A stretch of 60,277 nucleotides of DNA from an uncultured Armatimonadia bacterium (GCA_964617715.1 CAZTZN010000006.1:1-60277), one strand, 5' to 3'. Numbered from the stretch's first letter, positions 3,790 to 60,241 are shown. Program-made: numbers and translations. Notes: generated by a model not told the origin, from the sequence alone.

Positions 3790-3803
3790 CGGGAGGCGCG
3801 GCC

Positions 3804-7006: not shown

Positions 7007-7095
7007 GCTGCGAAGCGCGGGCAGACGCGACGGTGTCGTCCGCGCGCGGCTTTCGCGTCAGTGAGTGCGACCGTCTGCACCATCGGTGACTGCTG

Positions 7096-29918: not shown

Positions 29919-30977
29919 ATGAGCATGTACAAGATCGCGGTTCTGCCGTGCGACGGGGTCGGTCCGGAGGTGGTCGCCGAGGGCCTCAAGGTTCTGGAGG
30001 CTGCGGCGCAGATTCACGGGGTGCAGTACGAGACGGTGACCTATGATGTCGGCGGCGACCGCTACCTGCGCACCGGCGAGATCCTCACCGACTCGGTGAT
30101 GGCCGAGCTGGCACAGATGGACGCGATCTACCTCGGTGCGGTCGGCCACCCTGATGTGGCGCCCGGGATCCTCGAGAAGGGCATTCTGCTGCGCCTGCGC
30201 TTCGAGCTGGACCAGTACGTCAACCTGCGCCCGGTGAAGCTCTATCCGGGCGTGGAGACGCCGCTGGCCAACAAGGGCCCCGAGGACATCGACTTCGTGG
30301 TGGTGCGCGAGAACACTGAGGACATGTACGTCGGAGTCGGCGGACGGATGCGCGAAGGCACACCGCACGAGGTGGCAACCCAGACGGCGATCTACACGCG
30401 CATGGGCACCGAACGGGTGATGCGCTACGCCTTTGAGCTGGCGCGGCGCCGGGCGAAGGCGCGTAAGCTCACCATGGTGGACAAGTCGAACGTGCTGACC
30501 TTCGGCCACGACCTGTGGGTGCGGACCTTTGCCGAAGTGGGCGCGCAGTACCCGGACATCGAGACCGACCACGCCTACGTGGACGCATGCTGCATGTGGA
30601 TGGTCAAGAACCCCGAGTGGTTCGATGTGATCGTGACCACCAACATGTTCGGCGACATCATCACCGACCTGGGCGCGATGATTCAAGGCGGGATGGGCGT
30701 GGCGGCGTCGGGCAACATCAACCCCGAGGGGGTATCGATGTTCGAGCCGATCCACGGCTCGGCGCCCAAGTACACCGGCCAGAACGTGATCTGCCCGATC
30801 GCGGCGATCGCGGCCGCCGGGATGATGATGGAGCACCTGGGCGAGGAGGCGTGTGGCAGGGCGATCGAGGACGCGGTCATGGCGGCGCTGGCCTCGGGCA
30901 AGCTGGGCGACCTCTCCACCCGGTCGGGCGTCTCCACGACCGAGGCCGGCGACCTGGTGGCGTCGCTGGTCGAGTAG
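29919..30977 (+). CDS. D-malate / tartrate dehydrogenase (decarboxylating) type member of the isocitrate-isopropylmalate dehydrogenase family (DmlA/TtuC-like)
   Basis: Start at ATG 29919 after AAGGAGA. The blocks [54 protein letters not shown] and [18 protein letters not shown] track my memory of E. coli DmlA more closely than LeuB. Confidence 0.85.
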
Positions 30978-31074
30978 GGGGAGCGAGACAGGGAGTGCTG
31001 CAGGTAGACCGGAACAAGCAGGAGACCAAGGTAGCCCCAGGCCATCAGTTCCGGCTCGGCGCTTGGTGACGGCA

Positions 31075-45518: not shown

Positions 45519-45671
45519 GCGGGCCCCTCCTACGGGCTGGCTGGTCGAGCGCGGGAAGGTTCGTGGGCACGGCGGGGAACCCTTCAGGCGGACTCCGTCG
45601 CCCTCGGCCGCCTGTGACCGTGGACAGGCCAGGTGACCTGTCCTACGAACGACTCGGCAGACACGTGACGA

Positions 45672-45688
45672 CCGGCCCGAGGGGCCGG
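45672..45688 (-). terminator. Hairpin CCGGCCC-CTC-GGGCCGG just downstream of copA
   Basis: 7-bp GC stem 10 nt after the copA stop codon, read on the minus strand. No U-tract. Confidence 0.4.
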
Positions 45689-45697
45689 AGACCCGCC

Positions 45698-48085
45698 TCA
45701 GCCGAAGATCGCGCGGCGCGCCCGACGCAGGCGCAGGGAGTTGCCGACCACCGAGACACTGCTGGCGGCCATGGCGGCGGCGGCGATCATGGGGCTCAGC
45801 ACGCCCGCAGCGGCCAGGGGGATCGCCGCCACGTTGTACACGAAGGACAGGACGAGGTTCTGGCGGATGTGCGCCAGCGACCGGCGGCTCAGCGCGATGG
45901 CGCGCGGCACGCCCAGCGGGTCGCCGCTCACGAGTGTCACCGCGCCCGCCTCGATGGCCACGTCGGTGCCGGTGCCGATGGCGATGCCCACGTCCGCCTG
46001 CGCCAGCGCGGGCGCGTCGTTGATGCCATCGCCCACCATCGCCACACACTCACCAGCCTCCTGCAATGCCCGGATGCGCTCGGTCTTCCGGTCGGGCAGG
46101 ACCTCCGCGAGCACGTCGTCGATGCCGAGTTCGTCGGCCACCGCCCGGGCCGTGCGCCTGTGATCGCCGGTGAGCAGGTAGACGCGCAGGCCCTGCGCGC
46201 GCAGCCGCGCCACCGCCTCGCGCGCGGTCGGCTTGACCGCATCCGCGAGCGCCAGCGCACCCGCGGCGCGACCGTCGAGGGCAACCACGAGCGCGGTGCG
46301 TCCTCGGGCTTCGATACCGGCAAGCGTCTCATCGAGCGCCGACAGGTCGATGCCGCGATCGACCATGAGCGCCGGCGAGCCCACCGCGACCGCGTGGCCG
46401 TCGATGCGCGCCGTCACGCCCCGACCGACGATCACCTCGAAGTCCGCCGCCTCGGGCAGGTCCAGGCGCTCCCGGCGTGCGTGCTCGACGATTGCGCGTG
46501 CGAGGGGGTGCTCGGAAGGGACTTCGGCGGCGGCCGCGAGGCGCAGCACCTCGTCCGCCACGTGGCCCGCGGCGGGGACGATGTCGGTGAGCGACGGATG
46601 ACCCTCCGTGAGGGTGCCGGTCTTGTCGAAGACGACCGCGGTGAGTCGCCCGGCGACCTCCAGTGCCGCCGCCTCGCGGATAAGGATGCCGTGCTCGGCG
46701 CCCATCCCCGTGCCGACGGTGACCGCGGTGGGCGTGGCGAGACCCAAAGCGCATGGGCAGGCGATAACCAGCACCGAGACCGCGGCAATCAGGGCCGGCT
46801 CGGCTCCGTGGCCGGTGACTACCCAGGCGACGACCGTGCCCAGCGCGATCAGGATGACCGCCGGGACGAAGTAGGCCGCGACGGTGTCGGCGATACGCTG
46901 GATGGGTGGCTTGGTACCCTGAGCCTCGCGGACCAGCCGCACGATCTGCTGCAGCGCGGTGTCGGCTCCTACGCGCGTGGCCTCGAAGCGGAAAGCGCCC
47001 GCCAGGTTCACCGTGCCGCCGATGACCTCGTCGCCCTCGGACTTCTCGACCGGCACGCTCTCGCCGGTGATCATCGACTCATCGACCGTTGAGTGGCCCG
47101 CGACCAGCATCCCATCGACGGGGATACGCTCCCCCGGGCGCACAAGGATCAGATCACCGACGGCCAGGCGCGAGGCCGAAACCGCCTGCTCCTCGCCGTT
47201 GCGGATGACCGTGGCCTCATCGGGCGCAAGCTGCACGAGCGCGCGGATGGCGTCGGAGGTGCGGCCGCGGGCGCGCGCCTCCAGCCAGCGGCCGAGGGTG
47301 ATGAGAGTGAGGATCATCGCGGCGCCGTCGAAGTACAGGTGCCCGGAGCCCCGCGCGAGGTTGTAGAGGCTGAGCAGGTAGGCGGCGGTCGAGCCCATCG
47401 CGATCAGCACGTCCATGGTGGCGCCGCCCGCCCGCAGGGCTCTGGCGGAGCCCACGTAGTACTGTCGGCCGAGGACGACCTGCACCGGCGTTGCCAGCGC
47501 CAGCAGCAGCCATTCGTGGCCGGGGAAGCGCAGCCACATGCTGATGACCAGGATGGGCAGCGACAGCACCACGCCGAGGACGACGAGTGAGGCCTGGCGA
47601 CGAGCCTCGTCCTCGCGCTCCGCCTGCGCGTCATCGACCACAGTGGCCTCGCGGGCCTCGTAGCCGAGTTCGCTCACGCGCGCGACAATGCGGTCCAGCC
47701 CGACCTCGCCGGGCATGTAAGTGACCTCGGCGCTCTCCTCGGCGAGGTTGACGGCGGCCGCGCGGATGCCGTCCAGGGCCTGAAGCCCCGTCTCGATGGC
47801 GCGCACGCAACCCGCGCAGTGCATGCCCGAGATCAGCAGGCGCACCGTCGCCTCGGCGTGCGCCGGTTGGGCGCCGTAGCCCGCCGCCTGCACGGCAGCG
47901 ACAAGGTCTTCGACCGAGAGGTCGTCCGGATCGTAGTCCACTGTGACGGTCTCAGCGGCCAGGTTGACCACTGCCCGGTGCACGCCCTGGAGATCGCCCA
48001 GCGCCCGCTCGATGCTGCCGGCGCAGCCCGCGCACCGCATTCCCGTAAGTTCGAGGACCGTCGTCTGTTTCGTCAGGATCATCAC
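45698..48085 (-). CDS. copA: Copper-translocating P1B-type ATPase with two N-terminal HMA domains
   Basis: GMRCAGC and GMHCAGC metal-binding domains, TGES, the CPC motif ([12 protein letters not shown]), DKTGTLT and [11 protein letters not shown] 48085 or ATG 48082 is the start. Confidence 0.93.
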
Positions 48086-48347
48086 CTCTCACAGATCTCC
48101 GCCGGTCGAAATTCGCACTTGAAGCAATAACCCCTGCTTGTGGGCGGCGGGATCGTTCGCCGGTCATCACCAGCCAGAGCTTGTGAACGAGCGCACAGAC
48201 CTTCAACATGCGTACTTGGGCGCCCTACGGGCCGGTGAGTGCATCTACCGCCGCCGGATGGCGGTGGGCGAGGGCTGACCAAGGGGACATTGTGCAGTTA
48301 TGCGCAGATTGTAATGGGAATGGCGGGCGGATTTCCCGAGATTCTTC

Positions 48348-48376
48348 TTGACTTAAGTGCTCATTTGAGAAAAGAT
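48348..48376 (+). promoter_or_regulatory. Candidate promoter in an AT-rich patch (TTGACT-17-AAAGAT) ahead of the hydrogenase operon
   Basis: TTGACT at 48348-48353. The -10 element is weak (AAAGAT, or AAGATT with an 18-nt spacer). This is the only conspicuously AT-rich stretch of the window. It would give a leader of about 250 nt. Confidence 0.25.
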
Positions 48377-48633
48377 TAACGAAGTCAACTGTCGAGGAGC
48401 AGTCGCTTGCGGCGACGATGACGCGACAGTCGGTGAAGCCGGCATGAGGGCGGCTGAGGTCCCGTGATGTTGAGAGTGTGCCGGCTGTGCCGCATGACAA
48501 GTGTGGGGCGCTGCAGCGCCCGCGCGGGACGGAGGTCCCCGCATTTCTTCCAGGTGCGGATGGCGCAGCATCCCGGCCCCCGAGGGCGGATGTTGTGGCC
48601 GCCGCCATCGCCGTCGTACGGAGACATGAGTTC

Positions 48634-50472
48634 GTGAGCACCGACGGCCTCGGTTTCATCACATGTCCCCTGTGCGGCTGCGCGTGTGGGCTCAACCTGC
48701 TCGCTCAGCGCACCAGGCCCGACCAGCCTCTGTCGGTCACCGTGCTGCCCAGCGCGGCGCCGGGGTGGGGCGCGTCGGGGCTGTGCATGCGCGGGTGGCA
48801 GATCGGCGAGATCCTGCGCAGCCGTCGGCGCCTGCGCCACCCGATGGCGTGGCGGGAGGACGGCCAGCAGCGGGTGAGCTGGGACGAGGCGCTGGCGGAG
48901 GCGGCCCGGACTCTCAAGCGCCTGCGCGAGGAGGATCCGGCGGCGATCGGCGTGGTGCTCGGCGACAGCCTGAGCAACGAGGAGGCCTTCGCGGCCCGGG
49001 AGTTCGCGGCCATGCTGGGCACGCCGAACGTGGCGTGCCTCGGGCTGGAGATCGACGCCCCGGCCATCCACGGGCTCGAGCAGACCCTGGGCGCGCCCTA
49101 CCGGGCCCCCGCGCCCGAGGAGCTTGACGGCGTTGATCTGTTCATCTGCGTGAACTCGAACTTCCAGCATATCAACCCGCGGGCGGCGGGCGCCATGGCG
49201 CGGCGCGTGCAGCAGGGCGCCGCGCGCATGGTGCTCATCGACGAAGTGGACCAGGGCCTCGCCGTGTGGAGTGAACGGTATGCGCGTCACCGGCCCGGGA
49301 CGCGCGCCGACGCACTGTCGCAGGTGGCGGCGGCGATGACAGATGAGGACGCAGGCGGGCCGCTGAGCCGAGAGGATGTGCGGGCGCTGTGCACCATGGT
49401 CGGCGACAGCCGGCGCGTGGCGCTGCTGGTGTCGGCGTCGGCCATCGGCGGCATCGAGGAGGCGCTGGCGGTCGGACGGCTGGCGCGGGCGCTGCGCGGC
49501 GAGGCACGCTGGGCAGGGACGTACCTGCTGACCTCGGGGGCCAATACCTTCGGCACGCTGGACATGCTGGCCACCGACGGGCGAGGGCCCGGCGGCATGA
49601 GCGGGATGCGCATGGTCGCGTCCGGGTCGGGCCTGCAGGCGCTGATCGTCATCGGCGACGACATGGGGCGGCTCTACGGGCCGACCGCGCTGGCGACCTT
49701 GCGACAGCGGCTAAGGTTCGGGATGGTGCTGTCCTCGTTCTCTTCGCCCAACACCGAACTCGCGGACCTGTCGTTGCCGGTGACGCTCAACGGCGAGCGC
49801 GAGGGCACCATCCGACGCCCCGATGGTCGTCTGTGGTGGGGCCAGGCGATGCTGGAGCCGGTGGGTAAGGCGCGTCGCGTCGAGGTGGTGCTGGACGCGC
49901 TTGCGGCCGCCCTGGGCGAGAGTCGGTGCTGGAGCGACTACGAGGCAATCTGGACGGCGATCCGTGAACGCGTGCCCGGGTACCGGCACGTAGAGCCCCA
50001 AGAGCTGCGCGCGGGAGAGCTGCCGGTCGTGGGCCTGGACGCGGTGGATGTCGCCACGGTGGTCGATTCGCGCATCTTGACTCAATCTCTGGCCGGCTGG
50101 GCCCAGACCGACGCGGCACACCCGTTTGTACTCGTCCCGAGATCGGGGCGCGGCGGATGGATCACCGACCCACGCTGCCAGGGCGCGCATCTGCTCCGGC
50201 GCGAAGCGACCATGTATCGCGAGCCCTATGTGATAATGTCGCAGGATGACGCACGGGCGATGAATGTACGTCAGGGGGGCAGAGTCAAGGTTTCGACGCA
50301 CCACGGTGTCGCGGTGGTCCGTGTACGCACTGACTCGGGCATTCCTCCCCAGGTGGCGGTACTGCCCACGGAGCATCCCGACACGGTTCGCAGGCTGGCC
50401 CGTGACGGCGAGGGCGGGAGGCTGCCCACCGACCCGATGGCCGGAGCTGTCGAGCCGGCTGAAACACGCTGA
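48634..50472 (+). CDS. Molybdopterin-oxidoreductase (MopB) family, FdhH-like subunit lacking the catalytic (Se)Cys-His
   Basis: GTG 48634 lies 9 nt after GGAGA. N-terminal 4Fe-4S motif CPLCGCAC..(32)..LCMRG. C-terminal molybdopterin-binding barrel-like PYVIMSQDDARAMNVRQGGRVKV. The active-site segment reads GLEIDAPAIHGL. Confidence 0.8.
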   Translation: MSTDGLGFITCPLCGCACGLNLLAQRTRPDQPLSVTVLPSAAPGWGASGLCMRGWQIGEILRSRRRLRHPMAWREDGQQRVSWDEALAEAARTLKRLREEDPAAIGVVLGDSLSNEEAFAAREFAAMLGTPNVACLGLEIDAPAIHGLEQTLGAPYRAPAPEELDGVDLFICVNSNFQHINPRAAGAMARRVQQGAARMVLIDEVDQGLAVWSERYARHRPGTRADALSQVAAAMTDEDAGGPLSREDVRALCTMVGDSRRVALLVSASAIGGIEEALAVGRLARALRGEARWAGTYLLTSGANTFGTLDMLATDGRGPGGMSGMRMVASGSGLQALIVIGDDMGRLYGPTALATLRQRLRFGMVLSSFSSPNTELADLSLPVTLNGEREGTIRRPDGRLWWGQAMLEPVGKARRVEVVLDALAAALGESRCWSDYEAIWTAIRERVPGYRHVEPQELRAGELPVVGLDAVDVATVVDSRILTQSLAGWAQTDAAHPFVLVPRSGRGGWITDPRCQGAHLLRREATMYREPYVIMSQDDARAMNVRQGGRVKVSTHHGVAVVRVRTDSGIPPQVAVLPTEHPDTVRRLARDGEGGRLPTDPMAGAVEPAETR

Positions 50473-50585
50473 GATTCAGGGTGCAGATGAGAGCCCTTTC
50501 GCGGGGGACGACGGAGAACATGACGATCGCGTAAGAACCACCCACTCCACCGGCCCGTGAGGGCCGGAAAAATGAGGCACAAACC

Positions 50586-51752
50586 GTGCACAATTTCACG
50601 AACTCCCGAACCGGTGATTGTGCAGTGTGTCACAAGGATCAGCAGACGCAAGCGTTGCGGGTGCTGGCCGGCGCGAACATCCGGCGCTTCATCAAGGTGC
50701 TGATGGGCGCCACAGATCACTTCATCGCGCCCATCCTGGGCCTGCACGACGACTTGATCTTCGCCGAGGCGCGCTCCGCTGAGGACGTGCAGCTCGATTA
50801 TACCAACTCGCTGATCTCGCCGGCGTGCTACGTGCTGCCTCAGCGCGAGGCGATACTCACCTACGCGATGGCCGAGGGCGCACCGCCGGCGGTGCGGGCG
50901 GCCGCGGCGCCCGAATCGCACATCCTCTTCGGTGTGCGGCCGTGCGATGTCGCGGCCATTGAATATCTCGACCGCTTCTTCCTGGGAGGCGAGTTCAGGG
51001 ACGACGTCTACGCCCGTCGGCGCGAGAACAAGACGATCGTGGCCATGGGCTGCACCGAGCCGCAGCACGACGCCTGCTGGTGCACCTGCTCCCATGCCGG
51101 ACCGGTGGCGTCCGGCGGCTACGACCTGCAGCTCACGCCGATCGGCGACGACTACCTGGTCGAGGTCGGCAGCGAGCGCGGCGCGGAGCTGGTCGAGCGG
51201 GCGGATGACCTGCTCACCGGCGAGGGCGCCCCGGAGCTGCTCGCGGAGCGCGAGCGGCTGGTCGAGGCCTCCTGGCACAAGTTCGGCCGCCAGGGCAATA
51301 TCGCGCAGGCCATGCGCTGGATCAGCGGCGACGATGCGCCGAAGGACCTGTGGCAGGAACTGGGCGCGAAATGCTTCGGCTGCGGGAGCTGCTCTCTGGT
51401 GTGTCCGGTATGCACCTGCTTCGACACCTACGAATACGTTGAGGACGGAGTCGGCGCGCGCATCCGCTGCTGGGACTCGTGCCACTTCCCGGGCTATTCG
51501 CTCGAGGCGAGCGGCTTCAATCCGCGTGAGACCGCGGCCGAGCGCATGTTCCACTACGCGCATCACAAGCTGTGCCGCGACACCTTCACCAAGTACGGCC
51601 GGCCCGGGTGCGTGGGCTGCGGCCGGTGTGTCCGGGTGTGTTCGGCCCAGATCGACCTGCCACAGATTGCGCAGATGGTGCGCGAGCGCGGCTGGCAGTG
51701 CCGCGACTGTCCGGCGCACGCGACCGCGCACGAAGGGGCGGGTGAGACCTGA
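50586..51752 (+). CDS. Poly-[4Fe-4S] protein of the AsrA / sulfhydrogenase beta (HydB) type
   Basis: GVRPCDVAAIEYLDRFF, CFGCGSCSLVCPVCTCFD and CVGCGRCVRVCSAQID. GTG start after TGAGG. Confidence 0.8.
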   Translation: MHNFTNSRTGDCAVCHKDQQTQALRVLAGANIRRFIKVLMGATDHFIAPILGLHDDLIFAEARSAEDVQLDYTNSLISPACYVLPQREAILTYAMAEGAPPAVRAAAAPESHILFGVRPCDVAAIEYLDRFFLGGEFRDDVYARRRENKTIVAMGCTEPQHDACWCTCSHAGPVASGGYDLQLTPIGDDYLVEVGSERGAELVERADDLLTGEGAPELLAERERLVEASWHKFGRQGNIAQAMRWISGDDAPKDLWQELGAKCFGCGSCSLVCPVCTCFDTYEYVEDGVGARIRCWDSCHFPGYSLEASGFNPRETAAERMFHYAHHKLCRDTFTKYGRPGCVGCGRCVRVCSAQIDLPQIAQMVRERGWQCRDCPAHATAHEGAGET

Positions 51753-52588
51753 TGGCATCGGCACAGGAACCGGGGCTCTATGTGCCGCGGTCGGTCGAGC
51801 TGGCCGAGGCGATCGAGGAGAACGCGCTCGAGAAGACCTTCGTGTTCGACCTGCTCGACGGCACGCCGATGGCCTACAACCCGGGGCAGTTCGTGCTGCT
51901 GACGGTGTTCGGAGCAGGCGAGGCGCCGTTCACACTGTGCAGCATGCCCGGCGAGGCGCCGCGGGTGCAGCTCACCGTGCGGCGCTACCCCGGCGGGCGT
52001 GTGACCGAGCTGCTGCATGGCATGAAGCCGGGCGCGCACGCGGGCGTTCGTGGACCGTTCGGGAACGGCTTTCCGATGGACAGGCTACGCGGGCGGGACG
52101 TGCTGGTGGTCGCCGGTGGGATCGGCATGGCGCCCCAGCGCGGGCTGATCGAGGCGATCCTGAACGAGCGCGATGCCTTCGGGAAGCTGACCGTCTTCTA
52201 CGGAATGGCCAATCCCGAGCAGATGCTCTACAAGGGCCTGATGGCGCAGTGGCTGGAGCGCGACGACCTCGACCTGCGCCTGACCATCGACCGTCCGCAC
52301 CCGGACTGGGACGGGCACGTGGGCCTGATCACCACGCTGTTTGAGGATTTCGAGGCCGATCCGGAGCGGCTGACGGTGACCATCGTGGGGCCACCGGTGA
52401 TGTATCCGTTCGTGGCGAAGGAGTGCGAGAAGCTGGGCGTCGCCGACGAGGACATCCTGGTATCGCTGGAACGGCGTATGTCCTGCGGTGTGGGCAAGTG
52501 CGGGCACTGTGCGATCAAGGGGCATTACGTCTGCATCGAAGGGCCGGTGTTCACGCTGGCTCAGTTCAAGGAGTTCGGCGAGGAATAG
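51752..52588 (+). CDS. FAD/NAD(P)-binding [2Fe-2S] oxidoreductase of the AsrB / sulfhydrogenase gamma (HydG) / PyrK type
   Basis: TGATG overlap with the upstream gene. PGQFVLL, RRYP (FAD), VVAGGIGMAP (NAD(P)) and a C-terminal CGVGKCGHC...C cluster motif. Confidence 0.85.
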   Translation: MASAQEPGLYVPRSVELAEAIEENALEKTFVFDLLDGTPMAYNPGQFVLLTVFGAGEAPFTLCSMPGEAPRVQLTVRRYPGGRVTELLHGMKPGAHAGVRGPFGNGFPMDRLRGRDVLVVAGGIGMAPQRGLIEAILNERDAFGKLTVFYGMANPEQMLYKGLMAQWLERDDLDLRLTIDRPHPDWDGHVGLITTLFEDFEADPERLTVTIVGPPVMYPFVAKECEKLGVADEDILVSLERRMSCGVGKCGHCAIKGHYVCIEGPVFTLAQFKEFGEE

Positions 52589-52649
52589 CCGGCACGTGGG
52601 ACGCGGCGCACGCGGACGCAGGTGACGTGAACCGAGTGGTGAGCAAAGC

Positions 52650-54689
52650 ATGATTGCACAGGCGACAACAGGCGTCGAGCTGATCTTCGGGACGCTGGCG
52701 GCGGGCACGGTTGTGGCCGTGCTGCTGGCGCGCTGGCCACGGCTGTGCGGTTGGGTGTGCGCGGCCTTCGTGGCGGCGGCGGCCGGCGCCTCCGGCTGGC
52801 TCGGCGCCACGGTCTTCGGCGCCGGCGAGGTAGAGCTGACCTTGGGCACGCTGGGCTCGCTGCGGTCGAGCCTGACCTTGCACTTCGCGCCCCTGAACAT
52901 GATCTTCGTGTGGTTGATTCTGGGCCTGGGGCTGCTCGCCAGCGTGTACAGCGTGCGCTACGTCGAGCACGTCGCCGCCACGGACGAGCGCGGCGCCACC
53001 AGTGCGGTGGTGCGCTACTGGCCGGCGATGCTGCTCTTCCTCGCCTCGATGATCGCGGCGGTGTGCGTCGCGGACATGCTGTTCTTCTTCCTGGCATGGA
53101 GCTTCATGCTGCTGCCCGCGTTCGCGCTCATCGTCCATGATGCGCGCAAGCCCGAGGTGCTGCGCGCCGGGCTCAAGTTCCTGGCGTTCTCCATCGTCGG
53201 CAATCTCGGCATTCTCGGCGCGGTCCTGATCCTCTACCACGCGGGCGGCGACTTCAGCTTCGCGACCGCGACCGCCACGATGAGCGCACTGCTGGCGAGT
53301 CGGCCATGGCTGGCGCATCTCGCCTTCGGCCTGCTGGCGCTGGGCTTTCTGACCAAGCTGGGCATCTGGCCGATGGGTGACTGGCTGCCCGATGCCCACC
53401 CGGCGGCGCCCTCACCGGTGAGCGCGCTGCTGTCGGGCGTGATGATCAAGCTGGGCGCCTACGACCTCGCCTACATGTCGATGTCGATGATGGCCGACCG
53501 GGGCGCCGGCACGGACGCGCTGATGGTGTGGGGGCTGAGCCTGGCGGCGCTGGGCGGGCTGAGCGTGCTCATGGGCGGCGCGGCCGCGGCGGCGAACAAT
53601 GACGCCAAGCGCCTGCTGGCCTACAGCTCGGTGGGGCAGTCGGGCTACATCCTCATGTGCCTGGGGCTGAGCATGGCCTTTGTGCGGATCAGCCCCGGGC
53701 TGGGGGGGCTGGCGTTCGTGGCGGCGATGGCCTTCATCATGGCCGATGGCGTGCACAAGAGCCTGCTCTTCCTCACCGCCGGGTCGGTGCTGCACGCGAC
53801 CGGGACCCGTGATCTGGTGCAGCTTGGCGGACTGGGCGAGCGCATGCCCACGACCACCGGCGCGGCCATCGCAGGCGCGCTGTCGGTGGGGGGCGTGCCG
53901 CTCAGTGCCGGGTTCATCGGCAAGTGGCTGCTCTTCCAGACGGTCGTGCTGGGCGCGGCGGTGACCCCGCTGGCGGCGGTCTATCTGCTGGTTATCGTGG
54001 TGGGCAGCATCCTGTCGCTGGCCTATGCGCTCAAGTACGTCGGCGCGGCCTATCTGGGCGCGCCGGCGGGTCGCATCGCCGAGGAGGCGAAGGAGGTACC
54101 CCTGGGGATGCGTGTGCCTCAGCTCGTGCTCGCGCTCGGCACGCTGGCGGCGGGCTTGTGGCCGGCGCTGATTGTGCGCCCCGCGCTGGCGGCGTGGCAG
54201 CACATGAGCGCGTCCATCCCGCCGCTGGCCGATGTCGGGGCGGGAGAGCTTCTGGTGGGGCCTGGCCCGTCGGGAATGATGGGCGGTTTCGTCCCCCCGG
54301 CGGTGCTGGCGCTGCTGGTCGTCGCGGGTCTGATCGCGCTGGGCCTGTCGCGGCTGGGAAGCGCGCCGACGCGCGAGGTCCCGAGCTGGCAGAGCGGCCT
54401 CTCGCTGCCGCCGGCGCACACCCGGCTGCCCGCGAGTGGCTGGTACTGGCCGTTCACCCCGGCGCTGCGTCGCGCCTATCGCGAAGTCCCGTTCCCGGGC
54501 GTGCCCGCGCCCGTGCCGGTGCATGCGGCCGAGAACTCGGCGGACGGATCGCCGGCCTCCCCGTTCGGGCGTGGCGCCGGCGTGTGGCTGGCGGAGTTCG
54601 TGCGGGGAGAGGTAAGACATCGCATCATCTGGCCGACCGCGGGAGCAGCGCTCGTCCTGCTCCTGCTGCTGGCGTTGTGGACGCACTGA
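52650..54689 (+). CDS. Hydrogenase membrane subunit, HycC/HyfB (NuoL/ND5 antiporter-like)
   Basis: 679 aa with about 16 TM helices. WLPDAHPAAPSPVSALLSGVMIKLG and LLAYSSVGQSGY are Mrp/NuoL-type signatures. Confidence 0.85.
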   Translation: MIAQATTGVELIFGTLAAGTVVAVLLARWPRLCGWVCAAFVAAAAGASGWLGATVFGAGEVELTLGTLGSLRSSLTLHFAPLNMIFVWLILGLGLLASVYSVRYVEHVAATDERGATSAVVRYWPAMLLFLASMIAAVCVADMLFFFLAWSFMLLPAFALIVHDARKPEVLRAGLKFLAFSIVGNLGILGAVLILYHAGGDFSFATATATMSALLASRPWLAHLAFGLLALGFLTKLGIWPMGDWLPDAHPAAPSPVSALLSGVMIKLGAYDLAYMSMSMMADRGAGTDALMVWGLSLAALGGLSVLMGGAAAAANNDAKRLLAYSSVGQSGYILMCLGLSMAFVRISPGLGGLAFVAAMAFIMADGVHKSLLFLTAGSVLHATGTRDLVQLGGLGERMPTTTGAAIAGALSVGGVPLSAGFIGKWLLFQTVVLGAAVTPLAAVYLLVIVVGSILSLAYALKYVGAAYLGAPAGRIAEEAKEVPLGMRVPQLVLALGTLAAGLWPALIVRPALAAWQHMSASIPPLADVGAGELLVGPGPSGMMGGFVPPAVLALLVVAGLIALGLSRLGSAPTREVPSWQSGLSLPPAHTRLPASGWYWPFTPALRRAYREVPFPGVPAPVPVHAAENSADGSPASPFGRGAGVWLAEFVRGEVRHRIIWPTAGAALVLLLLLALWTH

Positions 54690-54692
54690 GGG

Positions 54693-56393
54693 ATGGAGGA
54701 CGGGATTGTGACGGCCGAGATGATTGCCCAACGGGTGGGGCAGCGCATCGGAGAAGCCCTGCTCGAGACGCGCGAGCGTAAGGCCACACGGCTGTATCTG
54801 ACGATCGACCCGGCCGCGGTGGTGGACACCGCGGACGAGTTGTTCAACCAGATGCAGGCGCGCTATGTGATTACCGCCGCGACCGACCAGCGCCGGGATC
54901 ACGGAGCCTACCTGGTTACGCACTTCTTCTCCTTCGACCAGGACGACATCTACGTAGCGGTGCATGCGCGCGTGCCTGAGGACGACCCGCGCATCGACTC
55001 GATCACGCCGACGATCCCCGGCGCGGGCTGGGCCGAGCGCGAGATGCGCGACATGATCGGGGTCGAGCCGGTCGGTCATCCCGATCCGCGGCGGCTGGTG
55101 CTGCCCGACGACTGGCCGGAGGATCTGCACCCGTTGCGCTGCGACTTCTCCCTCGATGACAGCCCGGCGCCGGCCGAGGGCATGGAGATGCCCATGAAGG
55201 ACATTCCTGAGGGCGCCGTGATGGTGCCGGTCGGGCCCTACTTCCCGACCCAGCACGAGCCCGAGAGCTTCGCGGTGTTCGTCGAGGGCGAGACCGTGGT
55301 GGGCTCGGACTACCGGGGCTTTTACAACCACCGGGGCATCGAGAAGTTGGGCTGCAGCGACCTGACCTACAACCAGATTCCGTTCGTCGCCGAGCGTATC
55401 TGCGGCATCTGCGGTTTCGTGCACTCCTGCGCCTACTGCATGGCCGTGGAGGAGGCCGCGGGTATCGAGGTGCCGCGGCGTGCGGACTACATCCGCACCA
55501 TCTTCCTGGAGCTTGAGCGCCTGCACAGCCACCTGCTGTGGACCGGCGTGGCGGCGCACATCATCGGCTTCGACACGCTCTTCATGCAGACCTGGCGCAT
55601 GCGCGAGCCGGTCATGTGGCTGTGCGAGAAGCTGACCGGCAACCGCAAGACCTACGGGATGAACATCATCGGCGGCGTGCGCCGCGACATCCCCGAGGAC
55701 GCGCACGTTGACATCGAGCGGGTGCTGGCCGACATCGAGCGCGAGTGGACCGCGCTGGCGGAGGCCGTGCCCGGTGACCGCACACTGATGGCGCGCCTGC
55801 GCGATGTGGGCTATCTGTCGCCGGAGCAGGCGCGCAGTATATGCGCGCTGGGCCCGACCGCGCGCGGTTCGGGCAAGCGCATTGACGTGCGCGTCGATCA
55901 CCCCTACGCGGCCTACGATGAACTGGAGCTGACCGCACCGATCGAGGACGGGGGCGACACGCTGGCGCGCACCCTGGTGCGCCTGGCCGAGACGCCCATC
56001 GCCATCTCCATCATCCGCCAGGCATTGGCGCATATGCCCGCCGGGCCGGTGCGCGCGGAGATCGACGAGGAGATTCCGGCCGGGCTCGAGGGCATCGCCG
56101 CCGTCGAGGCCCCGCGCGGGGAGTCGTTCCACTGGGTGCTGACCGGCGAGGACAACCGGCCGGCGCGCTGGCGCGTGCGCGCTCCGACCTACGCCAACCT
56201 GCAGGCGATCGACGCCATGATCAAGGGCGACGTGCTGGCCGACGTGCCCATCGACATCGGCAGCATCGATCCGTGCTACTCGTGCACCGACCGCATGACG
56301 GTCATTGATCGCCGCAGCGGGCAGATGCGCGTAATGACACGAGAGGAGATGGCCGGGCGGCGCCAGAACGCGTCCGGGCATATGACCACATGA
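54693..56393 (+). CDS. Group-4 [NiFe]-hydrogenase large subunit, NuoC-NuoD fusion (HycE-like)
   Basis: The N-terminal ~170 aa are NuoC-like. L1 motif RICGICGFVH (Cys237/Cys240) and L2 motif DPCYSCTDR (Cys528/Cys531) are present. A 32-residue tail follows the Arg. Confidence 0.92.
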   Translation: MEDGIVTAEMIAQRVGQRIGEALLETRERKATRLYLTIDPAAVVDTADELFNQMQARYVITAATDQRRDHGAYLVTHFFSFDQDDIYVAVHARVPEDDPRIDSITPTIPGAGWAEREMRDMIGVEPVGHPDPRRLVLPDDWPEDLHPLRCDFSLDDSPAPAEGMEMPMKDIPEGAVMVPVGPYFPTQHEPESFAVFVEGETVVGSDYRGFYNHRGIEKLGCSDLTYNQIPFVAERICGICGFVHSCAYCMAVEEAAGIEVPRRADYIRTIFLELERLHSHLLWTGVAAHIIGFDTLFMQTWRMREPVMWLCEKLTGNRKTYGMNIIGGVRRDIPEDAHVDIERVLADIEREWTALAEAVPGDRTLMARLRDVGYLSPEQARSICALGPTARGSGKRIDVRVDHPYAAYDELELTAPIEDGGDTLARTLVRLAETPIAISIIRQALAHMPAGPVRAEIDEEIPAGLEGIAAVEAPRGESFHWVLTGEDNRPARWRVRAPTYANLQAIDAMIKGDVLADVPIDIGSIDPCYSCTDRMTVIDRRSGQMRVMTREEMAGRRQNASGHMTT

Positions 56394-57304
56394 CGTTGAC
56401 GCAGTATCTGCCGACAATCGGGACCGCGGTCGCGGGGATGCTGCTGGCGCTGCTGGCGGCGCCGCTGCTGGAGGGCATGGTGCGCAAGCTGCGCGCGGTC
56501 ATCCAGTCGCGCCAGGGCCCGCCGGTGACCCAGCCCTACCTGGACCTGCTCAAGCTGCTGGCCAAGGAGGATCTGCGTGTCTCCGCCGGCCTGGTGGTGG
56601 CGTGGGGGCCACCGGTATTCCTGGCGGCCATCCTGGTCGCGGCGGGCATCATGCCGCTGGGGGGCATTACGCCCGAGCTGGCCGCCGCCGACATCGTGGT
56701 CTTCATCGGCCTGCTGGCGCTGGCGAACATCACGCTCGCCGGCCTGGGCTTCGCCACCGGTTCGGCGTTCTCGTCGCTGGGGGCCAGCCGCGAGGTCATG
56801 CTGATGCTCGCGGCCGAGCCGGTGCTGTTCCTGTCGCTGCTGGTGTTGACGCTGCAGGGCCACTCGCTGACCTTCGCGGGGATGCTGCAGGCGCCCGTGG
56901 GCATCGCAACCATCGCTGCGGCGGTGACCTACCTGCTGGCGCTGCAGATGTACGTGGCCAAGATCCCCTTCGACATCACCGAGGCGGAGACCGAGCTGAT
57001 CGGCGGGCCGCTGAGCGAGCTGAGCGGCCCGCGCCTGGCGATGGTCTACTGGGGCATCTACGCCAAGCAGTTCATCTACAGCTCGCTGTTCGTGCAGCTC
57101 TTCATCCCGTGGACGCTCAGCTTCATCCCGTGGGCGCCGCTGGCGGTGCTGGCGAATGTGGCGTGGGTGTTCGTGGTCAACCTGGTCGTGGTGGGCATCG
57201 TGGCCTCGGTCAACCCGCGCCTGCGTCTCGACCAGGCGCTGCGCTACGGCATGACCCTGGCGGCCGTCGCGGCCGCGGCGCTGATCTACGCGGCTATCGT
57301 GTGA
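56390..57304 (+). CDS. Hydrogenase membrane subunit HycD (NuoH-like)
   Basis: ATGA overlap with the large-subunit stop. 8-TM protein. LLEGMVRKLRAVIQSRQGPP matches the NuoH/HycD N-terminal signature. PFDITEAETEL. Confidence 0.88.
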   Translation: MTLTQYLPTIGTAVAGMLLALLAAPLLEGMVRKLRAVIQSRQGPPVTQPYLDLLKLLAKEDLRVSAGLVVAWGPPVFLAAILVAAGIMPLGGITPELAAADIVVFIGLLALANITLAGLGFATGSAFSSLGASREVMLMLAAEPVLFLSLLVLTLQGHSLTFAGMLQAPVGIATIAAAVTYLLALQMYVAKIPFDITEAETELIGGPLSELSGPRLAMVYWGIYAKQFIYSSLFVQLFIPWTLSFIPWAPLAVLANVAWVFVVNLVVVGIVASVNPRLRLDQALRYGMTLAAVAAAALIYAAIV

Positions 57305-57335
57305 GGCATAACGTCGCATCGTGGGCGTGAGAGAA

Positions 57336-57824
57336 ATGACCATCGCGAGCAAGCTCAAAGAGGCGCTGCTGTGCATGAAGGCCGGTCGCGTGACCCTGCC
57401 CTATCCCTTCGAGCCACATGACCCGGATGAGGGCTTCCGCGGCCTGCCCAGGGTTGATGTCAACAAATGTATCGGCTGCGGCGGCTGCGCGAACGTCTGC
57501 CCGGCGCGGCTGATTCGCATCATCGACAAGGACCAGTTCACGCGCGTGCTGGTCTTTCTCTACGAGCGGTGCACCTACTGCGGGCGTTGCGCCGAGGTGT
57601 GCCCCGAGGGCGCCATCGAGATGACGCGTGAGTTCGAGCTGTCCACGGACGATGTGCACGACGACATGATCGGTGAGTACCACATCTTCATGGGCCCGTG
57701 CGAGCGCTGTGGTCGTTGCTACCGGCCGCCCACGGCGCTTGATAAGCTCATGAAGCCGGGCATGCGCGATGACCCGATCGACCGCAAGTGTCCCGCGGCC
57801 CGGCGAACCGCAGACGAACAGTGA
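57336..57824 (+). CDS. 2x[4Fe-4S] ferredoxin-like subunit HycF (NuoI-like)
   Basis: CIGCGGCANVCP and CTYCGRCAEVCP, plus extra C-terminal cysteines (CERCGRC...KCP). I prefer ATG 57336 over GTG 57321. Confidence 0.85.
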   Translation: MTIASKLKEALLCMKAGRVTLPYPFEPHDPDEGFRGLPRVDVNKCIGCGGCANVCPARLIRIIDKDQFTRVLVFLYERCTYCGRCAEVCPEGAIEMTREFELSTDDVHDDMIGEYHIFMGPCERCGRCYRPPTALDKLMKPGMRDDPIDRKCPAARRTADEQ

Positions 57825-57860
57825 GGTGGCGTGATCTCCCGCCTGCTTTGAGGTGACGAT

Positions 57861-58379
57861 GTGATTCGCGACTGGCTCATCAGGAAGGTTCTGCCCCGCT
57901 CGCTGTGGGTCTACCATACCAACTGCGGGGCCTGCAACGGCTGCGACATCGAGGTGCTCGATGTCCTGACGCCCTACTACGACGCCGAGCGTTTCGGCAT
58001 CAGGCTCGTGGGGTCACCGCGCCACGCCGACGCGCTGCTGGTGTCCGGGCCCATGACTCGACAGACCGCGCCCGCGGTGCGCCGGGTCTACGAGGCCGTC
58101 CCCGACCCCAAGGTGGTCTTCGCCATCGGCTCGTGCGCCACCGGCGGCGGGCTCTGGCACGACACCTACAACGTGCTGGGCGGCGCCGACCAGGTGCTGC
58201 CGGTGGACTTCTACGTACCCGGCTGCCCGCCGCGCCCTGAGGCGATCCTGCATGGTATTGCCACCGCGCTCGGCCTCACCCCCAAGGAGGTGCACGCCCT
58301 TCGCGCCATCCAGGAGGCCGATGACGTCGAGATCGAGGACCTGCGCGAGGAACAGCGGCTGGTCCGCGAGCAGGACTGA
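57861..58379 (+). CDS. Group-4 [NiFe]-hydrogenase small subunit HycG (NuoB-like)
   Basis: CGACNGCDIE, GSCATGGG and PGCPPRP ligate a single proximal cluster. GTG start after GAGGTGA. Confidence 0.88.
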   Translation: MIRDWLIRKVLPRSLWVYHTNCGACNGCDIEVLDVLTPYYDAERFGIRLVGSPRHADALLVSGPMTRQTAPAVRRVYEAVPDPKVVFAIGSCATGGGLWHDTYNVLGGADQVLPVDFYVPGCPPRPEAILHGIATALGLTPKEVHALRAIQEADDVEIEDLREEQRLVREQD

Positions 58380-58390
58380 CGGACGGGTAG

Positions 58391-58418
58391 CCGGGAACGA
58401 GGAACCGGCAACCGGGAA
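58391..58418 (+). repeat. Four tandem heptads CCGGGAA-CGAGGAA-CCGGCAA-CCGGGAA directly after the hydrogenase operon stop
   Basis: Read directly. It shares the 14-mer GGAACCGGCAACCG (58401-58414) with 60260-60273. Confidence 0.5.
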
Positions 58419-58579
58419 CGGCGTAAGGCGACGGCGGGCGGCGGCCGAGGTCATCGATCAGATCCGTGGCGCAGTCCTCCAACCTGCGGCCGTCGCCCCC
58501 ACTGCCCGAGCAGGACTGCCCGCCTCCCGTGCCGAATGCCCCGCTGAGCGACAATCCCCGTCAGCGGGAGCGATCACCC

Positions 58580-60241
58580 ATGAGGCGCGTCACCACTGCC
58601 CTCGTCACGCTCTGCCTCTGTCTGCCTCTGGCTCACGCCGGCAAGCTCATCGAGACCGGGTGGGACCACGCCAACCCCGAGCGTATGCGCCAGAACCTGG
58701 AGGTCATGGAGCAGACTCCCTTCCAGGGCCTCGTCATCGAGTTCAGCGGCCCCGGCGGGCAACCCGGCTACCGCTACGTGCACTCCGGCGAGGTATGGGA
58801 CGAGTCGGCCATCCCCGCCATCATCGAGGACCTGCGGGCCGTGCAGCCCGAGCAGCTCAGGGACCGCTTCCTGCAGGTCAACGCCAACCCCGGCGACGTG
58901 GACTGGTTCGACGACGCCGGCTGGGAGCAGATCGTGCACCACTGGCGCATCGCGGCGCGCGTGGCGAAGCAGGGCGGACTGACCGGCATTCTCTTCGACC
59001 CCGAGCCCTACCGCGATCCCTGGCGGCAGTTCGCCTACGCCTCTCAACCGCAGGCCGACGAGCACTCCTTCGCCGAGTACTACGCCAGGGCCCGCCAGCG
59101 CGGGCGCGAGGTCATGACCGTGGTCGCCGAGGAGTTCCCCGACATAACCCTCTTCTGCTACTTCATGCTCTCGGTCACAGCCACCGCCGCCCATCTCGAC
59201 AACCCCATCGACGGGCTGGTCGGGGACAGCTACGGCCTCTACCCGCCCTTCATCGACGGCTGGCTGGACGTGGCGCCCGAGACCGTGACCTTCGTGGACG
59301 GTTGCGAGCGCGCCTACCACTTCAACAGCCAGCTCGAGTACCTGGGTGCGGCCAACCTCATCCGCAATACCTGCCGGCGGTTGGTGTCGCCCGAGAACCG
59401 TTACAAGTACCGCGCGCAGGTGCAGGTGAGCTTCGGCGTCTACCTCGATGCCTACGCCAACCCGCCGGACTCGCGCTGGTACATAGACCCGGGAGAGCTG
59501 ACCCCGACCCAGCGTCTGCAGGCGAACGTCTCGACCGCCCTCGCGGTCGCCGACGAGTACGTGTGGGTTTACGGTGAGCAGGCGTGCTGGTGGCCGACGC
59601 CGCACCGGCGCGCGGGCGAGCACCGCTGGCCGGAGCTGCTCCCGGGCATCGACGCGGCGCTGTGGGCGGCGGCGAACCCGGCGGGCTACGTCGAGCGGCT
59701 CATGAACCAGCGCGGCGACGCGCTGGCCAACCTGTTCATCAACGGGGACTTCTCCGGCCAGGCGGGTCCGCCTGCGCCGGGAGCGGCGACCGCGCCCGAC
59801 TGGGAACAGGGCGCGGCGCCACCGGGCTGGAGCTTCTGGCAGGCGGGCATCTCCGAAGGCCGACCCGGCTGGGACCGTGAGGTCGGGCATGACGCGCCGG
59901 GCTCGGGGACCCTGACCGCGGTCGGGGAGGGGTGTCTCATCCAGTCGATCGAAGTGCGGCCGGGCGAGACCTACGGCATCTGCGCGTGGCGGCGCATCCA
60001 GGGCGAAGGCAGCGCAACCATCCGCGTGCGCTGGCAGACGCCCGAGGGCAGGTGGCATGCCGAGCAGCTCGACAAAATGCTCGGGACTTCCACGCCCGCG
60101 GAGGAATGGGGCCGCATGGCCGGGCTGGTCACGGTGCCCGACGGCGCGGGCAAGCTCATTGTGCTGCTGCAGGCGAGCGGCCAGCGCTCGGAGGACGACG
60201 TGATCTGGTGGGATGACGTGGTGGTGTTCCGGGCGGATTGA
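58580..60241 (+). CDS. Secreted hypothetical protein with C-terminal CBM-like (jelly-roll) domain
   Basis: Start at ATG 58580 (signal peptide MRRVTTALVTLCLCLPLAHA). The last ~170 aa (NGDFSG..GWSFWQ..IEVRPGETY..WDDVVVFRA) look like a CBM4/9/22-type carbohydrate-binding module. I do not recognise the N-terminal ~380 aa. Confidence 0.7.
   Translation: MRRVTTALVTLCLCLPLAHAGKLIETGWDHANPERMRQNLEVMEQTPFQGLVIEFSGPGGQPGYRYVHSGEVWDESAIPAIIEDLRAVQPEQLRDRFLQVNANPGDVDWFDDAGWEQIVHHWRIAARVAKQGGLTGILFDPEPYRDPWRQFAYASQPQADEHSFAEYYARARQRGREVMTVVAEEFPDITLFCYFMLSVTATAAHLDNPIDGLVGDSYGLYPPFIDGWLDVAPETVTFVDGCERAYHFNSQLEYLGAANLIRNTCRRLVSPENRYKYRAQVQVSFGVYLDAYANPPDSRWYIDPGELTPTQRLQANVSTALAVADEYVWVYGEQACWWPTPHRRAGEHRWPELLPGIDAALWAAANPAGYVERLMNQRGDALANLFINGDFSGQAGPPAPGAATAPDWEQGAAPPGWSFWQAGISEGRPGWDREVGHDAPGSGTLTAVGEGCLIQSIEVRPGETYGICAWRRIQGEGSATIRVRWQTPEGRWHAEQLDKMLGTSTPAEEWGRMAGLVTVPDGAGKLIVLLQASGQRSEDDVIWWDDVVVFRAD

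Follow-up and report, generated by a model that had tools for sequence, protein, structure and literature searches.

Which electron donor would serve a membrane-bound hydrogenase whose formate-oxidizing input has been exchanged for another module? This question is raised by an eight-gene operon in a stretch of 60,277 nucleotides from an uncultured Armatimonadia bacterium (GCA_964617715.1 CAZTZN010000006.1:1-60277), hereafter called the window. The operon encodes the Hyc-type core of a group-4 [NiFe]-hydrogenase, preceded by homologues of the beta and gamma subunits of sulfhydrogenase I (SHI) and by a degenerate FdhH-like MopB protein. We consider, with slightly better than even confidence and from the sequence, that it encodes a reversible NAD(P)H:H+ oxidoreductase on a formate hydrogenlyase (FHL) chassis, in which MopB would be a NuoG-like iron-sulfur (FeS) scaffold and the coupling to ions is uncertain. 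To our knowledge, the use of NAD(P)H is not established for any [NiFe]-hydrogenase bound to the membrane.

Composition of the operon

A check of the open reading frames (ORFs) gave eight co-directional genes on the + strand at 48634-58379, with the same boundaries as in an earlier note made from the sequence alone, and the Pfam and NCBIfam assignments were exactly those which that note had proposed (Table 1). The window has a GC content of ~70%, and all eight ORFs show the high bias in GC at third codon positions that marks real genes. The coupled junctions were also found as described. The gamma-like gene overlaps the beta-like gene at TGATG (51750-51754), the large-subunit and HycD-like genes overlap at ATGA (56390-56393), and the antiporter-like and large-subunit genes meet at TGA-GGG-ATG (54687-54695), with a 3-nt gap at 54690-54692. 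Intergenic gaps of 113 nt and 61 nt lie between MopB and beta and between gamma and HycC, respectively.

The last five genes form a group-4 core, as the earlier note had claimed and as the Pfam and NCBIfam models and the matches in the PDB confirm. The signatures RxCGxCxxxH and DPCxxCxxR lie on a NuoD-like fold, and NuoB-, NuoI-, NuoH- and NuoL-like subunits are encoded in consecutive genes. In the large subunit, which is of the Cys type and not of the selenocysteine (Sec) type, both Ni-Fe ligand motifs are intact (RICGICGFVH and DPCYSCTDR) and are followed by a 32-residue C-terminal tail, which implies that the protein would be cleaved by a HycI-type protease. The best PDB match of the large subunit is E. 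coli HycE (7z0s_E, 4.2e-133, 40.5% identity), followed by P. furiosus Mbh and complex I NuoCD/Nqo4. It has 7529 relatives in the protein collection. The nearest of them (56-89% identity) come from metagenomes, those with a name being proteins from metagenome-assembled genomes (MAGs) of Armatimonadota. Identities to the E. coli counterparts are 49-50% for the HycG-like subunit against HycG/HyfI (HycG 49%), 34-43% for the HycF-like subunit against HycF/HyfH (HycF 34%), and 35-39% for the HycD-like subunit against HycD/HyfC (HycD 35%). The antiporter-like subunit, the sole one of its kind in the operon, is closest to E. coli HyfB (32% identity); it keeps the equivalents of the NuoL lysines K229, K342 and K399, and the equivalent of Glu144 in transmembrane helix 5 (TM5) is Ser.

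Upstream of this core lies the pair that had been likened to AsrA/HydB and to AsrB/HydG/PyrK, and the likeness holds, since the best solved matches are the beta and gamma subunits of P. furiosus SHI. The beta-like gene occupies the position of HycB in FHL. Its product matches 9nez_B (8.6e-39, with the Cys motifs aligned), and ShyB (3.9e-46), HydB (1.2e-44) and AsrA are among its best NCBIfam models, with scores below the equivalog cut-offs. The gamma-like protein matches 9nez_C (3.6e-48) and, among NCBIfam models, hydrogenase gamma, AsrB, ShyC and HydG; the pair scores far below the HydB/HydG equivalog cut-offs. In the gamma-like protein, the GGIGMAP nucleotide loop (GGxGxxP) and the CGVGKCGHC [2Fe-2S] motif (C-x4-C-x2-C) are present and align with SHI gamma. 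Two known enzymes with such subunits do not describe the operon. An anaerobic sulfite reductase AsrABC would have a siroheme subunit, and the Pfam and NCBIfam scans found no NIR_SIR protein (AsrC) or other siroheme protein in the operon or the window, with the AsrA/AsrB matches below equivalog cut-offs. As for a group-3b sulfhydrogenase, the catalytic subunits here are NuoD/NuoB-like and stand with membrane subunits, and the ShyA and ShyD models reach only 36 and 16 bits.

The MopB protein keeps the cysteines of the FS0 [4Fe-4S] cluster (FdhH C8, C11, C15 and C42). In the PDB-based and FdhH-anchored alignments and in tblastn with FdhH, the residues at the positions of FdhH Sec140, His141 and Arg333 are Ile, Asp and Thr, with LEIDAP opposite ARLCHAP, so the earlier description of an FdhH-like MopB devoid of catalytic residues is correct. 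The protein is ~100 residues shorter than FdhH. The top Foldseek matches of its AlphaFold2 (AF2) model (pLDDT 82.7) are ForCE1 and FdhH, with TM-scores of 0.75-0.77 (FdhH 0.76), against 0.66 for E. coli NuoG. Its ratio of nonsynonymous to synonymous substitution rates (dN/dS) is 0.30-0.37 against relatives.

The input genes of other group-4 enzymes had been reported as lacking from the operon, and tblastn and Pfam scans agree for HycB/HyfA, CooF/CooS and Mrp. By tblastn, the window has no homologue of HycB/HyfA (at E<=1e-4), NuoE/F or HycI, and Pfam scans of the rest of the window gave no CooS/CooF, Mrp, siroheme, molybdenum cofactor (Moco) or hyp families. The operon holds no small Mrp subunits, leaves no room for them between its genes, and has one antiporter-like gene. 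The window also has no formate channel, fdhD or Moco genes. An AIR-synthase-family protein at 5993-7006 (+) was rejected as HypE; HypE is its best NCBIfam model, at 117 bits against a cut-off of 251.6, and the SelD and ThiL models are close behind in score.

Table 1. Operon genes and the region upstream of them, in window coordinates.
Feature	Coordinates	Strand	Family or note
FdhH-fold MopB subunit, 612 aa	48634..50472	+	Molybdopterin + Molydop_binding
Poly-[4Fe-4S] subunit, sulfhydrogenase I beta homologue (HydB/ShyB/AsrA)	50586..51752	+	Fer4_22
FAD / NAD(P)H / [2Fe-2S] subunit, sulfhydrogenase I gamma homologue (HydG/AsrB/PyrK)	51752..52588	+	FAD_binding_6 + NAD_binding_1 + DHODB_Fe-S_bind
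HyfB/HycC/NuoL-like antiporter-type subunit, 679 aa	52650..54689	+	Proton_antipo_N/M; NCBIfam hydrogenase-4 subunit B 2.2e-90
[NiFe] large subunit, NuoC-NuoD fusion (HycE-like)	54693..56393	+	Complex1_30kDa + NiFeSe_Hases + Complex1_49kDa
HycD/HyfC/NuoH-like membrane subunit	56390..57304	+	NADHdh, PF00146 at 1.9e-48
HycF/HyfH/NuoI-like 2x[4Fe-4S] subunit	57321..57824	+	NCBIfam formate hydrogenlyase FeS subunit 4.4e-31
HycG/HyfI/NuoB-like small subunit (proximal [4Fe-4S])	57861..58379	+	Oxidored_q6, PF01058 at 1.7e-32
Intergenic region, 548 nt	48086..48633	.	Between divergent Cu-ATPase gene and first operon gene

Distribution of the operon and its relation to known systems

Related loci were taken from a scan of one genome per GTDB species, as the best 80 of at least 589 related stretches, and together with one locus from the protein collection (L001) they make 81. 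These loci were searched by tblastn with the eight window proteins, and the ORF upstream was tested by phmmer. The gene neighbourhood that the earlier note had pointed to, with AsrA/AsrB-like genes beside HycE-like genes, recurs: the beta/gamma pair stands beside Hyc genes in 64 of the 81 loci. The usual order, kept nearly without exception, is beta-gamma-(HycI)-HycC-HycE-HycD-HycF-HycG, and the ORF immediately upstream of beta is a MopB homologue by phmmer in 62 of the 64. In at least 50 related loci, a gene for the HycI protease separates gamma from HycC and so stands within the unit. Loci of this kind occur in at least 14 phyla. Their carriers are Armatimonadota, Acidobacteriota, Aminicenantes, Spirochaetota, Verrucomicrobiota, Planctomycetota, Gemmatimonadota, Desulfobacterota, KSB1, Krumholzibacteria, Chloroflexota, Fibrobacteria, a Eubacteriales MAG, and the cultured betaproteobacterium Chitinibacter tainanensis DSM 15459 (L076, 3629-13590), in which nine genes (with HycI) abut or overlap. 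Such recurrent adjacency of MopB, beta, gamma and Hyc genes indicates that their linkage is not accidental. Accordingly, the earlier impression of an unusual chimera outside the known complexes has to be given up, as the triad of upstream genes is the rule in a clade of at least 14 phyla and appears in two published studies (PMC6349859 and PMC13582414). The operons of this clade routinely carry the three upstream genes, though without an established function.

A neighbour-joining (NJ) tree of 85 large-subunit sequences, built by this method only and without support values, places the beta/gamma loci in one large bacterial clade; E. coli HycE/HyfG, which group with archaeal loci, and four archaeal loci without beta/gamma lie outside. 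The clade members without the pair are mostly on contigs that are cut off on the upstream side. Only two complete clade loci have no beta/gamma genes, L022 and L029 from Dehalococcoidaceae MAGs, and these carry HycB and a true FdhH. The FdhH of L022 (501-2531) has Cys (CARLCH) and that of L029 (~3030-5045) has an in-frame TGA at Sec140 (CARL-TGA-H), with 40-41% identity to E. coli FdhH. HycB/HyfA occurs in none of the beta/gamma loci and only in L022 and L029. FdhH with HycB and degenerate MopB with beta/gamma are mutually exclusive, which is what the exchange of modules at a single docking site would lead one to expect.

Among 56 full-length MopB proteins of the family, the four FS0 cysteines are invariant, Cys stands at the Sec140 column in none, and Arg333 is found in three. 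The residues at the catalytic columns are heterogeneous (GH, YC, YD, VD, IC and others), and in 15 of the 56 a Cys lies one position off. FS0 and the Arg/Lys equivalent to K44 are conserved, and in the subclade of the window the Asp at the His141 column is conserved as well (LE[IL]DAP). The conserved positions are largely common to E. coli NuoG, which is pterin-free. The motifs NNxQG..DMG and Arg44 were considered as a sign of retained pterin and dropped, since E. coli NuoG has most of these positions. MopB is probably a NuoG-like FeS or scaffold subunit. The MopB of the window lineage has diverged most from FdhH, with 63 bits. With few exceptions, the MopB proteins of the other beta/gamma loci reach 100-414 bits, and the true FdhH proteins reach 536-538 bits.

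The membrane arm occurs in two forms. In the long, Hyf-like form, HyfE accompanies two or three antiporter-like subunits. Of the 19 HyfE-positive loci, 18 have the TM5 Glu in their HyfB-like subunit, and the alignment does not contain the HyfB-like subunit of the remaining one. In the short, Hyc-like form, with one antiporter-like subunit, this Glu is replaced by Gln in all 42 cases. The Lys equivalents of NuoL K229, K342 and K399 are kept in 69 of 69 antiporter-like sequences. The Glu/Lys pair is broken in the short forms, and pumping through HycC is therefore questionable there. The window belongs to the short form, except that its residue at the TM5 Glu position is Ser. Two loci carry further genes downstream. 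In L051 (Verrucomicrobiota), NuoE- and NuoF-like genes (35% and 42% to E. coli) at 14286-16272 lie just downstream of HycG, besides the upstream beta/gamma pair, and could form a second nucleotide-linked module. In L077 (a Limisphaerales MAG), a second, distant group-4-like set (HycD-, HycG- and HycE-like, 29-46%) occupies 14383-17462, ~5 kb downstream of the main operon.

The lineage of the window itself has traits of its own. L088, with 79% large-subunit identity, shows the identical eight-gene layout and the same flanking genes, whereas L086 and L087, with 83% identity, have two extra antiporter-like genes (6370-7863 and 13165-14667 in L086) that the window and L088 do not have. These differences in layout indicate that the membrane arm was remodelled recently, by gain or loss, within one family-level lineage. 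The HycI gene is missing in the window, L086 and L088, although the large subunit of the window keeps a cleavable tail. The gamma motif YGAR[TS]P of almost all the family has become YGMA[NSG]PEQ in this lineage (GMANP in the window). The GAR[TS]P segment aligns with NTARYGK of the NADPH-specific SHI gamma, and by analogy with FNR-type proteins the loss of Arg may represent a shift from NADPH toward NADH, which we suggest with low confidence. All eight genes are under purifying selection, with dN/dS of 0.11-0.44 against L088 and L086, and the unusual residues are common to the relatives of 79-83% identity, which makes them stable lineage traits. On these two grounds, decay or pseudogenization was rejected.

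The architecture as such is on record in papers of 2019 and 2026. A Saganbacteria group-4 locus with an unclassifiable MopB, cooF, asrA and asrB was called "enigmatic" (Matheus Carnevali et al. 2019, PMC6349859). In a subclade of HydDB group 4b, about half of the Fdh subunits have no Cys/Sec ligand, and the clusters co-occur with SHI-beta/gamma homologues (Takano et al. September 2026, PMC13582414, in silico). Those authors name Armatimonadota among the phyla of the Cys-less-Fdh subtype and propose a coupling of H2, NADPH and an unknown substrate; their independent in-silico reading likewise has NADPH-oxidizing SHI beta/gamma homologues on a group-4b core with a Cys-less Fdh (PMC13582414). The window has the triad that defines this subtype, namely a Cys/Sec-less MopB, SHI-beta and SHI-gamma beside a group-4 core. 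On the one hand, it shares with the Takano and Saganbacteria clusters the group-4 core, the Fdh-like MopB without Cys/Sec and the adjacent SHI-beta and SHI-gamma homologues. On the other hand, those clusters list HyfE-like and multiple antiporter subunits and, in Saganbacteria, cooF, whereas the window has one antiporter, no HyfE and no HycI. We infer membership of the window operon in group 4b from PMC13582414 and from a study of Zipacnadia MAGs (L009, 63% identical) that reported group-4 enzymes of types 4b or 4g. HydDB labels group 4b as formate-respiring and Na+-translocating via Mrp, and the window differs from this description in having no Mrp module and no catalytic Fdh or carbon monoxide dehydrogenase (CODH) input. 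HydDB group 4f was dropped in favour of the 4b subtype, since publications on 4f give other contexts, namely seven-gene ehf operons, NuoE/F-like partners and, often, a lack of Ni-Fe ligands. What we add to these papers is how large the family is and how widely it is spread over phyla, its strict separation from HycB with true FdhH, the division into long and short forms marked by the TM5 residue, the traits of the window lineage, and a cultured carrier.

With E. coli formate hydrogenlyase-1 (FHL-1; FdhH-HycBCDEFG, 7Z0S/7Z0T, group 4a), the operon shares the core chassis and the subunit count, a HycE of the NuoC-D fusion type, a single HycC-type subunit, and an FdhH-fold protein, which in FHL-1 sits at the tip of the complex. 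However, FdhH of FHL-1 is catalytic (Sec140/His141/Arg333) and is linked to HycF by HycB, whereas the window MopB has none of the three residues and HycB is replaced. The large subunit of the window also falls outside the HycE/HyfG branch in the NJ tree without support values. P. furiosus SHI (group 3b, 9NEZ) provides the closest solved homologues of the second and third genes, its beta and gamma (FAD, [2Fe-2S], NADPH) subunits, but SHI is cytosolic with group-3b alpha and delta subunits, whereas the catalytic pair of the window is of group 4 (NuoD/NuoB-like) and membrane-anchored. The parallel that the earlier note drew with complex I stands as an analogy, and not as membership. NuoB/C/D/H/I/L homologues, a degenerate MopB with an FS0/N7-type cluster, and a flavoprotein for NAD(P)H entry are common to both. 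In contrast to complex I, the window has a Ni-Fe site in place of the quinone pocket, a flavoprotein of the FNR/PyrK type with FAD instead of NuoEF with flavin mononucleotide (FMN), and no NuoA/J/K/M/N, and its MopB is a separate protein whose fold is closer to FdhH (TM-score 0.76) than to NuoG (0.66).

Proposed reaction and competing explanations

In the NAD(P)H:H+ oxidoreductase that we favour, the eight subunits would form one membrane-bound group-4 [NiFe]-hydrogenase in which the FdhH and HycB input has been replaced. The gamma homologue would take a hydride from NAD(P)H onto FAD and pass the electrons through its [2Fe-2S] cluster. By way of the [4Fe-4S] clusters of beta and then of HycF and HycG, the electrons would reach the Ni-Fe site in HycE and reduce protons to H2. 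MopB, which keeps only the FS0 cluster and the fold, may have a structural or FeS role, as the dead molybdopterin domain of NuoG does. The membrane arm of HycD and HycC could harvest or supply a small amount of gradient energy, with coupling doubtful in the short form. The reaction would be reversible, its direction being set by the H2 pressure and the NAD(P)H/NAD(P)+ ratio. H2 evolution from NAD(P)H is unfavourable at 1 atm H2 but turns favourable when H2 is scarce, as in the soils, peat and sediments that are home to most carriers, and for this reason we expect the reaction to be reversible. The enzyme had previously been suggested to be NAD(P)H-linked and possibly ion-translocating; the first part is in line with an input module of the NAD(P)H type, whereas the second is weakened by the Ser at the TM5 Glu position.

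Several points weigh against this assignment. The textbook potentials are -320 mV for NAD(P)+/NAD(P)H and -414 mV for H+/H2, and the step from NAD(P)H to H2 is uphill at standard conditions by ~+18 kJ/mol, so that it depends on a low H2 pressure, a high NAD(P)H ratio or energy from the gradient. In the literature, no biochemical or experimental study of this hydrogenase type was found. Ion coupling may be weak or absent, judging from the TM5 Glu, which is Ser here and Gln in the short forms, and a gamma subunit without GAR[TS]P could take NADH or something else as its nucleotide. HycI and the hyp genes are absent from the window. A scaffold role does not fully explain why a large MopB is universally retained under selection, and some MopB proteins of the family are highly FdhH-like (up to 414 bits) and could bind pterin.

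A more far-reaching proposal would make the complex a "hydrogen-evolving complex I", that is, a reversible NAD(P)H:H+ oxidoreductase coupled to the gradient, with MopB as an FdhH subunit on its way to a NuoG-type scaffold and the window version trimmed further, possibly with a switch to NADH; we regard this as possible and rather doubtful. The same complex could also act as an uptake enzyme, an H2:NAD(P)+ oxidoreductase that pumps ions or gains reducing power from H2. By the textbook potentials, the reaction from H2 to NAD(P)+ is exergonic at standard conditions. In addition, SHI is reversible, 69 of 69 sequences keep the Lys chain, and some carriers are probably aerobic or facultative (Armatimonadota; Chitinibacter). 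However, the characterised group-4 enzymes in the HydDB table are H2 evolvers, the TM5 Glu is lost in the short forms, and many carriers are fermentative anaerobes of peat, sediment and digesters (Spirochaetota, Aminicenantes, Verrucomicrobiota), for which a NAD(P)H-oxidizing valve fits better. We consider uptake as the main function unlikely.

A different role for MopB is implied by the main rival, a three-way confurcating or bifurcating complex, in which MopB would be catalytic with an unconventional Mo/W site and an unidentified substrate, and the FeS network would join the Ni-Fe site, the FAD of gamma and MopB. This idea was proposed from AlphaFold complex models (PMC13582414). It gains from the retention of MopB in 62 of 64 loci, from the purifying selection on MopB, from the conserved FS0 and K44-equivalent Arg/Lys, from the subclade-wide Asp at the His141 column, and from the Cys one position off in 15 of 56 proteins. 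Asp is a Mo ligand in Nar-type enzymes. However, MopB has no Sec/Cys-His-Arg triad, and the residues found in its place differ widely across the family, which speaks against one conserved active site. The conserved positions of MopB are common to pterin-free NuoG, and neither a Moco riboswitch nor Moco genes are found nearby. The FAD of gamma-type subunits falls in the PyrK/NfnA class, and the bifurcating flavin of Nfn is a different one. For the window, where MopB is most degenerate (63 bits) and ~100 residues short, this degeneracy lowers our rating further, and we hold a third substrate to be improbable.

The operon might also consist of two independent neighbours, a soluble MopB/beta/gamma oxidoreductase and a ferredoxin-dependent Ech-like hydrogenase. 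The gaps of 113 nt between MopB and beta and of 61 nt between gamma and HycC would allow this, and Ech-type enzymes work without a dedicated input subunit. However, the same order recurs across at least 14 phyla, the genes overlap or abut elsewhere (for example in L076), at least 50 loci have HycI within the unit, after gamma and before HycC, HycB with FdhH strictly excludes beta/gamma with dead MopB, and no + strand terminator is predicted in the operon, all of which leaves a division into two enzymes with little probability. The label of HydDB 4b and the automatic annotation would suggest a formate hydrogenlyase or formate-respiring hydrogenase. Although the MopB fold is closest to FdhH-type formate dehydrogenases, the core is closest to E. 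coli FHL and HydDB 4b means formate-respiring, this is very improbable here: Sec/Cys140, His141 and Arg333 are all missing, the window has no HycB, formate channel, fdhD or Moco genes, and true FdhH occurs only in loci without the beta/gamma pair. A decaying, non-functional remnant in the lineage of the window is likewise hard to credit. Several subunits (MopB, gamma and HycC) deviate from the family consensus, HycI is absent, and L086/L087 have two extra antiporter-like genes, but no ORF is broken and the codon bias is strong, the ligands of the Ni-Fe site and the FeS clusters are in place, dN/dS is 0.11-0.44 in every gene, the odd residues are common to relatives of 79-83% identity, and L088 has the identical eight-gene layout.

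If the operon does encode a NAD(P)H:H+ oxidoreductase, it would connect the pyridine-nucleotide pool directly with H2, and perhaps with the membrane potential, in fermenters and soil bacteria of many phyla. HydDB surveys would score such operons as "formate-respiring" (4b), and annotation pipelines call their products "NADH-quinone oxidoreductase subunit C" or "anaerobic sulfite reductase A/B". Considering the input module of beta/gamma and degenerate MopB, neither the formate-respiring label nor the automatic ones fit. The dead but retained MopB is a natural comparison for the origin of the empty molybdopterin domain of NuoG. With Chitinibacter tainanensis DSM 15459 as a cultured carrier, the question is testable now.

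Operon boundaries and neighbouring genes

The start of MopB at 48634 is a GTG with GGAG 8 nt upstream, and it fits the 612-aa homologues better than 48478 or the start at 48595 given by the gene caller. Within the upstream intergenic region, an AT-rich, promoter-like stretch TTGACT...AAGATT was read at ~48365-48400, together with a leader of ~230 nt. A scan of 47900-58800 for the sigma-70 consensus gave no match, which carries little weight for an organism of 70% GC. Terminator-like hairpins in the same interval are at chance level, with none on the + strand inside the operon, which again carries little weight at this GC content; one such chance-level hairpin lies upstream of the operon at 48526-48539. 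An Rfam search of the 548-nt leader and the whole window gave no match to any family, riboswitches for Moco and Ni/Co included. The 113-nt gap between MopB and the beta-like gene holds, ~20 nt before the start of the latter, a GC hairpin with a perfect stem of 7 bp and a GUGA (GNRA) loop, CCGGCCC-GTGA-GGGCCGG (50549-50566). It has no T-run and is therefore not a + strand terminator, and it was rejected as a conserved regulatory element, since the equivalent gaps in L088 and L086 are of unrelated sequence.

Downstream of HycG, after 87 nt, a 591-aa protein with an N-terminal signal-peptide-like segment is encoded at 58466-60241 (+), for which no Pfam or NCBIfam match was found. Homologues of 558-560 aa follow the operon in L088 (13851-15533) and, as two tandem copies, in L086 (15267-18649), with 55-58% identity to the window protein and dN/dS of ~0.5; this synteny may reflect only the relatedness of the genomes. 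On the other side of the operon, a long ORF at 43167-46049 (-) encodes a fused 2-oxoacid dehydrogenase E1 alpha+beta. It overlaps the 3' end of the copper-ATPase (Cu-ATPase) ORF at 45698-48085 (-) by ~350 nt, which places the true E1 start further downstream. The L086 homologue of this fused E1 protein has an extra Sigma70_r2 Pfam match between the E1 domains. Further away, at 30853-32394 (+), the window encodes a homologue of the LarA-family nickel-pincer nucleotide (NPN) 2-hydroxyacid racemases (398 bits against an equivalog cut-off of 460) with an N-terminal extension of ~75 residues, another Ni-dependent enzyme nearby.

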